From the NCBI GenBank assembly GCA_965261735.1, contig OZ253470.1, positions 1,984,001 to 2,048,000 of the forward strand: 64,000 nucleotides of DNA, written 5' to 3'. Source of the stretch: Alphaproteobacteria bacterium. GTDB taxonomy: Bacteria > Pseudomonadota > Alphaproteobacteria > SHVV01. A program made the position numbers and the translations under genes. Positions 14,250 through 15,317 of this stretch are shown piece after piece. The notes under the pieces were generated by a model. It worked only from the letters and a program-made list of their open reading frames with translations, did no database searches and was not told where the DNA came from. Every line of letters starts with the position of its first letter. The stretch's first letter is position 1.

Positions 14250-15317
14250 ATGCCGCTGAACCAGGTCCTGCGCGGCGACTGCACCACGCTGCTGCCGACG
14301 CTGCCGGCGGGCTCGGTCGATATGATCTTCGCCGACCCGCCCTACAATCTGCAGCTCGGCGAGGGCCTGCGACGGCCCAACCACAGCCTCGTCGACGGCG
14401 TCGACGCCGCCTGGGACAAGTTCGCCGATTTCACCGCGTACGACGCGTTTACCCGGGCTTGGCTCGGCGCCGCGCGCGAGGTGTTGTCCGAGTCGGGCAC
14501 CCTGTGGGTGATCGGCACCTACCACAACATCTACCGGGTCGGCGCCCTCCTCCAGGATCTCGGGTTCTGGATCCTCAACGACGTGATCTGGCGCAAGACC
14601 AATCCCATGCCCAACTTCCGCGGCCGGCGCTTCACCAATGCGCACGAGACCCTGATTTAGTGCGCCAAGAGCCGCGACCAGCGCGGCACCACCTTCAACT
14701 ACGACGCCATGAAGGCGCTGAACGACGATTTGCAGATGCGCTCGGACTGGCTGCTGCCGGTATGCGCGGGCGGCGAGCGCCTCAAGGAGGCGGGCCGCAA
14801 GGCGCACCCGACGCAGAAGCCTGAGGCCCTGCTGCACCGCGTCATCCTGGCCTCGACCCGCCCCGGCGACGTGATCCTCGATCCCTTCTTCTGCACCGGG
14901 ACGACAGGTGCGGTCGCCAAGCGCCTCGGCCGCGACTTCATCGGTATCGAAAGCGACCCCGGCCATGCGGCGCTGGCGGAGAAGCGGCTCGCGGCGATCG
15001 CTCCGGGGCAAGCCGCGGAGCTCGCCGTCACGCCCTCGCGTCGCGATGAGCCGCGCATTCCGTTCGGTGCCGTCGTCGAGCGCGGGCTGCTCAAGCCGGG
15101 CGACATCCTCTGCGACATGCGCCGGCGCCACAGCGCCAAGGTGCGCGCCGACGGAAGCCTGGTCGCCGCCGACGTCACCGGTTCTATCCACCGCGTGGCG
15201 GCCGAACTCCAGGGCGCCCCCGCCTGCAACGGCTGGTCGTTCTGGCACTTCGAGGTCGCCGGCGACCTCAAGCCGATCGATCTCCTACGCCAACGCCTGC
15301 GCGCCGAACTCTCCTGA
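14250..15317 (+). pseudogene. ccrM: Cell-cycle-regulated GANTC adenine methyltransferase, interrupted by an in-frame TAG at 14658-14660
   Basis: [36 protein letters not shown] (conserved Trp TGG>TAG), [20 protein letters not shown]-terminal [12 protein letters not shown] domain; the two ORFs are in the same frame; rnhB-ccrM-mutY synteny. Confidence 0.92.

Follow-up and report, generated by a model that had tools for sequence, protein, structure and literature searches.

A probable, recently formed ccrM pseudogene in one genome of an alphaproteobacterium rich in insertion sequences

With the exception of a few lineages, nearly all Alphaproteobacteria have the DNA methylase CcrM, and several species need it to live, so natural losses at the level of single strains are informative on the dispensability of the GANTC methylome outside the laboratory. 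In CcrM, motif I (FxGxG) is described as binding SAM and motif IV as catalysing the reaction, while the C-terminal domain contacts the non-target strand and its deletion abolishes activity (PMC6787082). Laboratory deletion of ccrM in Caulobacter crescentus is reported to be borne under slow growth and soon compensated (PMC3708114, PMC4551980, PMC3885167), compensation arising in ~300 generations and mostly via raised ftsZ expression (PMC4551980). The gcrA/ccrM pair has been presented as a dispensable module, both genes being present or both absent, and its lineage-wide absence, for example in Rickettsiales, has been tied to relaxed selection on cell-cycle coordination (PMC3885167). The findings of PMC3885167 and PMC4551980 make tolerance of ccrM loss credible. 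Among the titles and abstracts that a literature search listed, we found none on a ccrM pseudogene confined to a strain of a free-living alphaproteobacterium.

We analysed a 64-kb stretch of alphaproteobacterial DNA (termed the window, meaning the whole stretch at its full length) which carries on its plus strand a ccrM gene interrupted by several lesions. The gene and its immediate surroundings are composed as follows:

13538..14200, plus strand: rnhB (RNase HII), upstream neighbour, uninterrupted, 220 aa; PF01351, E 6.6e-41
14130..14233, plus strand: stretch before ccrM (upstream or leader), containing three GANTC sites
14234..14248, plus strand: codons 1-5 (MSRDA), including the native start; the gene body is in another frame
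14249..14251, plus strand: lesion 1, a one-base insertion, A14250 in CCC-A-TG being the simplest candidate, from comparison of the window DNA with the N-termini of the relatives' proteins
14250..14660, plus strand: N-terminal fragment ORF, 136 aa (P0125), ending at the TAG; PF01555 profile positions 1-101, E 1.6e-26
14658..14660, plus strand: lesion 2, in-frame TAG for an invariant Trp (HETLI*CAK), putatively TGG to TAG
14709..15317, plus strand: C-terminal fragment ORF, 202 aa (P0133); PF01555 profile positions 144-221, E 2.8e-25, and PF18755, E 1.9e-19
14892..14894, plus strand: lesion 3, TGC (Cys) for the first Gly of SAM motif I FxGxG (DPFFCTGTT), putatively GGC to TGC
15237..15239, plus strand: fourth private difference, TCG (Ser) where 11/11 full-length close relatives have Ala, from protein comparison
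15332..16399, minus strand: mutY, convergent downstream neighbour, uninterrupted, 355 aa; HhH-GPD and NUDIX_4

The gene body (14250-15317, plus strand) has a CcrM-like translation broken by one in-frame TAG. Both fragments match complementary parts of PF01555, the beta-class N6/N4 DNA methylase profile of 221 positions: catalytic motif IV, DPPY, is kept in the N-terminal fragment (residues 29-32 of the translation from 14250), and the C-terminal fragment holds the SAM-binding half of the methylase domain followed by the C-terminal DNA-binding RAMA domain (PF18755). The window gene thus has the same two domains, PF01555 and the C-terminal PF18755, as C. crescentus CcrM (6PBD), with which it also shares the DPPY motif and the NGW/FW residues, N327, G328, W329 and W332 each being present in 130/130 aligned homologues. 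This alignment comprised 130 sequences longer than 300 aa, namely the best 120 matches and 10 further full-length members of the close-relative cluster described below, and 98 of its 355 columns were invariant. An intact near-twin, P0002, differs from the window product only at the start, at the two lesion residues and at one Ala/Ser position, and aligns end to end with the solved Caulobacter structure 6pbd_A (match over residues 10-358, E 1.3e-150). The gene order rnhB-ccrM-mutY is also the arrangement of orthologous loci: in 53 of 80 such loci from other Alphaproteobacteria, rnhB precedes the gene on the same strand, and mutY was matched in 46, on the opposite strand every time and downstream in 39. 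The combination of PF01555 and PF18755, the match to 6pbd_A and the synteny with rnhB and mutY identify the window gene as the orthologous ccrM. It differs from Caulobacter CcrM in that its frame is broken twice, by the frameshift after codon 5 and by the TAG, and in that its motif I reads FxCxG; as read from the DNA, it is a pseudogene by descent and not an enzyme.

GANTC sites in the leader and a CtrA box are cell-cycle promoter features of ccrM genes. Three GANTC sites precede the window gene (14143, 14182 and 14216), that is 3 in ~120 nt as against 0.26 per 120 nt window-wide. In this the window locus resembles most orthologous loci, which likewise have the gene between rnhB and mutY and a GANTC cluster upstream: in the 120 nt upstream of 79 orthologous loci (the count omits L013, where the match begins 64 nt from the contig end) we observed a mean of 1.8 GANTC sites against a background of 0.20, and at least one site in 54/79. 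No match to a CtrA box (TTAA-N7-TTAA, at most 1 mismatch) was found near ccrM, the two matches in the window lying elsewhere and at chance level. The ratio of observed to expected GANTC sites had been proposed as a check, residual depletion being taken as a mark of recent loss, and it gave no signal: the window holds 136 sites, for which 195 were expected from composition, 197 from a second-order and 146 from a third-order Markov model, and seven control palindromes of the same composition as GANTC gave 92-143 sites. GANTC depletion was consequently discarded as a clock.

The full extent of ccrM and the nature of the lesions emerged from comparison with close relatives. The 90%-identity protein cluster contains 12 sequences, of which 11 are full length (359-360 aa) and 94-99% identical to the window product; every one of these 11 has the intact Trp, the intact Gly and the start MSRDA-LPLNQ. 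The twelfth member is the 136-aa fragment P0125, and the 202-aa P0133, carrying the Cys and the Ser, forms a singleton cluster. From the N-termini of the relatives, the native start is ATG 14234 and the full gene spans 14234-15317. Since MSRDA is out of frame here while it runs into LPLNQ in 11/11 relatives, we infer a one-base insertion near 14250, the inserted base being deduced from the relatives' proteins and not from their DNA. This insertion shifts the frame after codon 5 and gives rise to a fortuitous in-frame ATG at 14250, which is the start used by gene callers. The column interrupted by the TAG is Trp in 130/130 aligned homologues as well as in the 11/11 full-length close relatives, and the column of lesion 3 (codon 215 counted from ATG 14250) is Gly in 130/130. 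The fourth difference falls in a variable column (T38, A35, E30, S14 and others among the 130 homologues), and Ser also occurs there in the 77-78% identical relatives P0003 and P0004, so that the change from Ala to Ser at 15237-15239 is probably neutral. All lesion bases rest on one deposited assembly. The first-pass annotation had already pointed to the in-frame TAG replacing the conserved Trp of HETLIW and to a motif I reading DPFFCTGTT for DPFFGTGTT, both of which the alignment bears out, and its description of rnhB and mutY as intact stands; its placing of the gene start at 14250, with two lesions, has to be revised, as the native ATG is at 14234 and the 5' frameshift constitutes a third lesion. 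The annotation also passed over the IS-rich surroundings.

Translation of the locus suggests that ccrM has suffered three independent lesions, each of them disabling. The insertion after codon 5 would uncouple the body of the gene from its native start, the change from TGG to TAG would leave untranslated the target-recognition region, SAM motif I and the C-terminal DNA-binding domain, and the third lesion would turn the first glycine of the SAM-binding FxGxG loop into cysteine. The predicted product from the native ATG 14234 runs out of frame after five residues, that from ATG 14250 ends at residue 136 and lacks motif I and the C-terminal domain, and that from ATG 14709 is without motif IV and carries the cysteine in its SAM loop. 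As each possible product is without essential parts, the locus is predicted to be one that cannot supply active CcrM.

The two fragments are also part of the public record. The exact sequences of P0125 and P0133 both occur on one 5,031,631-bp contig of the public collection, so the lesions belong to the deposited record, whereas intact relatives come from contigs of up to 5,000,832 bp and a working ccrM is still carried by relatives that are 98-99% identical. All four ccrM differences are private to that one contig, and neither fragment's cluster contains truncated or intermediate ccrM forms from other assemblies. The presence of the fragments on one contig, compared with 7 for rnhB, could partly reflect contigs ending before ccrM. 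A scan of genome contigs turned up nothing above 69% identity; the comparison with close relatives is thus at the protein level, at which synonymous changes are invisible.

We compared the number of changes private to the window in ccrM and in the genes around it. In an exact-sequence look-up of ten guessed flanking proteins, 8/10 were found in the collection (mutY, smc, an rpoH-like sigma factor, a DsbA-like protein, a Na/H exchanger, a radical-SAM protein, rnhB and an EamA transporter) and 6/8 of these were present on 2-11 contigs, which indicates that base-level quality around ccrM is good; the identical rnhB protein was found on 7 contigs and the identical mutY protein on 3. The two sequences not found had been entered with a longer smc start and with a guessed gcvT start. 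The eight flanking genes contain no stop and no frameshift, and the counts were as follows:

Eight flanking genes, 3407 codons: at most two window-only residue changes (smc G779, DsbA-like S248)
ccrM, 355 codons: three window-only substitutions and one frameshift

Comparing ccrM with its flanks by Fisher's test gave an odds ratio of 14.5 (p 0.007), or 19.4 (p 0.001) when the frameshift was counted, on small numbers of private changes (3-4 versus 2) and with "private" being approximate, given that the DsbA-like allele is common to one other contig. If the flanks have the low dN/dS usual for bacterial genes, release from purifying selection would be expected to give an excess of roughly this size, 14- to 19-fold; the excess of private changes in ccrM over its flanks fits relaxed constraint and the neutral decay of a real pseudogene. 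The two residues listed for the flanks are the sole window-only ones there and lie in the plus-strand stretch 17014-21248.

All three ccrM substitutions replace a coding-strand G, one by A and two by T. Mutations not under selection are expected to run in this direction, from GC to AT. A stop would result from 2.4% of the single substitutions possible in ccrM, or from 4.0% of those from GC to AT, and 25-37% are silent, so that one nonsense mutation among a few neutral changes is unremarkable once constraint has gone. Beyond the TAG, 219 codons stay open and GC3 is 0.89; such an otherwise pristine gene is compatible with very recent loss, and equally with errors. We note separately that intact mutY (15332-16399, minus strand) adjoins ccrM, whose private changes include two G-to-T transversions.

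It could be argued that the lesions are assembly or consensus errors, made at a place where a long-read assembly had low coverage or mixed strains, and that the real ccrM is intact. All four differences are indeed confined to one contig, the remainder of ccrM is identical to P0002, and a window rich in insertion sequences complicates assembly. This explanation would nevertheless need four errors within 1 kb of a single-copy gene, in the midst of ~10 kb of flanking genes that match the collection letter for letter, 6/8 of them on 2-11 contigs. The insertion of lesion 1 is outside any homopolymer and the other three differences are substitutions, neither of which is a usual type of long-read error, and a consensus built from intact alleles would not make a stop. 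The lesion sites have no common sequence motif and none lies inside a GANTC, which makes systematic errors linked to a motif unlikely. We accordingly regard artefact as improbable. It is far more improbable still that ccrM remains active, by use of the new ATG at 14250, by amber read-through or reinitiation at 14709, by a tolerated change from Gly to Cys, or as a two-piece enzyme. The insertion does recreate an in-frame ATG, and both fragments are open with high GC3 and an intact DPPY, but three separate rescues would be required. TAG ends 21/52 of the ORFs picked as coding in the window, and no suppressor tRNA was found there, its only tRNAs being tRNA-Glu(CTC) and tRNA-Gly(GCC), observations on which we rejected reassignment or suppression of TAG. 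Moreover, the motif I glycine affected by lesion 3 is invariant among the aligned homologues, the fragment starting at 14709 is without motif IV, and the fragment ending at the TAG is without motif I and the C-terminal domain whose deletion is reported to abolish activity (PMC6787082). The argument of the first-pass annotation against a single sequencing error or amber read-through holds, and its proposal of recent pseudogenisation comes out stronger than it was stated, there being three disabling lesions, 11/11 intact relatives and an excess of private changes. The loss of the GANTC methylome and the rewired cell-cycle circuit that it also put forward are conjectural.

A different possibility is that the pseudogene is real and that GANTC methylation persists through a second ccrM or a HinfI-type restriction-modification methylase elsewhere in the ~5-Mb genome, the orthologous ccrM having been already redundant when it decayed. 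Redundancy would explain the decay of a near-universal gene, and mobile DNA, plentiful in this genome, could have imported such a methylase. Against this, the 82 ORF translations scanned from the 64-kb window contain no second ccrM or other PF01555 gene besides the two ccrM fragments, and we consider this possibility unlikely, if less so than artefact. Neither gcrA nor ctrA was found among the same 82 translations, and ftsZ, mipZ and PTS genes are absent from the window. Of the readings weighed, that in which window positions 14234-15317 hold the orthologous ccrM as a real, recently formed pseudogene, in one genome, is in our judgement a likely one, to the extent that a single assembled sequence can tell.

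The genomic surroundings agree with decay of this kind. Mobile DNA makes up ~15% of the 64-kb window (rough spans), with the following elements:

3966-5132: IS110 transposase (mobile region 3900-5700); a partial copy lies inverted beside it, the arms (4656-5090 and 5226-5660) being 92% complementary
6466-7572: IS1595 copy A
23957-25102: IS4/IS5-type transposase
45393-46685: Mutator-family transposase
50713-51820: IS1595 copy B, intact
about 60180-61043: third, more distant IS1595 transposase
62284-63360: rve integrase (mobile region 61700-63360)

Compared with copy B, IS1595 copy A carries a +A frameshift insertion and a CAA-to-TAA nonsense mutation (minus strand, stop at 7167-7169). It has one more change in its coding part and two in its right terminal repeat, and its decay, judged by these changes, is of the same kind as that of ccrM. 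An ORF at 3127-3852 (minus strand) that abuts the IS110 cluster has a match to the C-terminal domain of 5'-nucleotidases (PF02872) and to no other domain; a metallophosphatase half was not found nearby, and the gene was probably truncated by insertion of an IS. With this load of insertion sequences and these decayed genes, the genome seems to be under relaxed selection, which would make a real ccrM pseudogene plausible.

Several other features of the window were recorded. The tRNA-Glu(CTC) gene (45227-45302) lies directly beside the Mutator transposase and the tRNA-Gly(GCC) gene (60033-60107) directly beside the third IS1595 transposase, which suggests tRNA-adjacent insertion sites for these two elements. 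A tandem glycine riboswitch on the minus strand (31252-31461; two RF00504 aptamers, 72.4 and 35.9 bits) is located upstream of a gcvT-gcvH-gcvPA-gcvPB glycine-cleavage operon (26857-31211). We rejected gcvP as a candidate frameshifted gene, as its overlapping ORFs represent the normal two-subunit form, with GDC-P at 28362-30089 and GcvP2_C in the next ORF; gcvH is separate, at 29705-30232. Positions 1-2060 contain only short fragmented ORFs with no Pfam match, together with a 103-nt direct repeat (2-104 and 1570-1672, 91% identical), and this region could be decayed or noncoding DNA.

If the pseudogene is real, its history may have been a simple one. In a lineage under the relaxed selection suggested by its insertion sequences and its other decayed genes, a first lesion would have lifted selection on ccrM and the others would have piled up neutrally, with the usual GC-to-AT bias. 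The cell would then bear the loss of ccrM as laboratory Caulobacter does, through slow growth or compensating changes, and GANTC methylation would be lost only if the genome has no second methylase of that specificity. As in the laboratory deletion strains, CcrM function, here by prediction, is lost in a viable alphaproteobacterium; unlike them, the loss arose naturally, through point lesions and in one strain. It differs equally from the absence seen in Rickettsiales, which is old, clade-wide and without gene remnant, whereas the remnant in the window is nearly whole and the 98-99% identical relatives are intact.

The decay of ccrM looks like a recent, ordinary and strain-specific gene loss; mobile elements crowd the genome, ccrM is one of several genes that have decayed in it, and its loss is a fresh case of a known type of event, not a new mechanism. 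For annotation purposes, the locus is to be recorded as one pseudogene and not as two small methylase genes. We give roughly even chances to the broader proposition that, in an alphaproteobacterium with a large (~5 Mb) genome laden with insertion sequences, one strain is now devoid of the sole GANTC methylase it had and its 98-99% identical conspecifics retain theirs. If that proposition is true, the strain would match, in nature, the ccrM deletions made in the laboratory, and its comparison with its siblings would reveal nature's compensating changes, at the ftsZ/mipZ promoters, in gcrA or in PTS genes, and would tell whether the gcrA/ccrM module goes as a unit.
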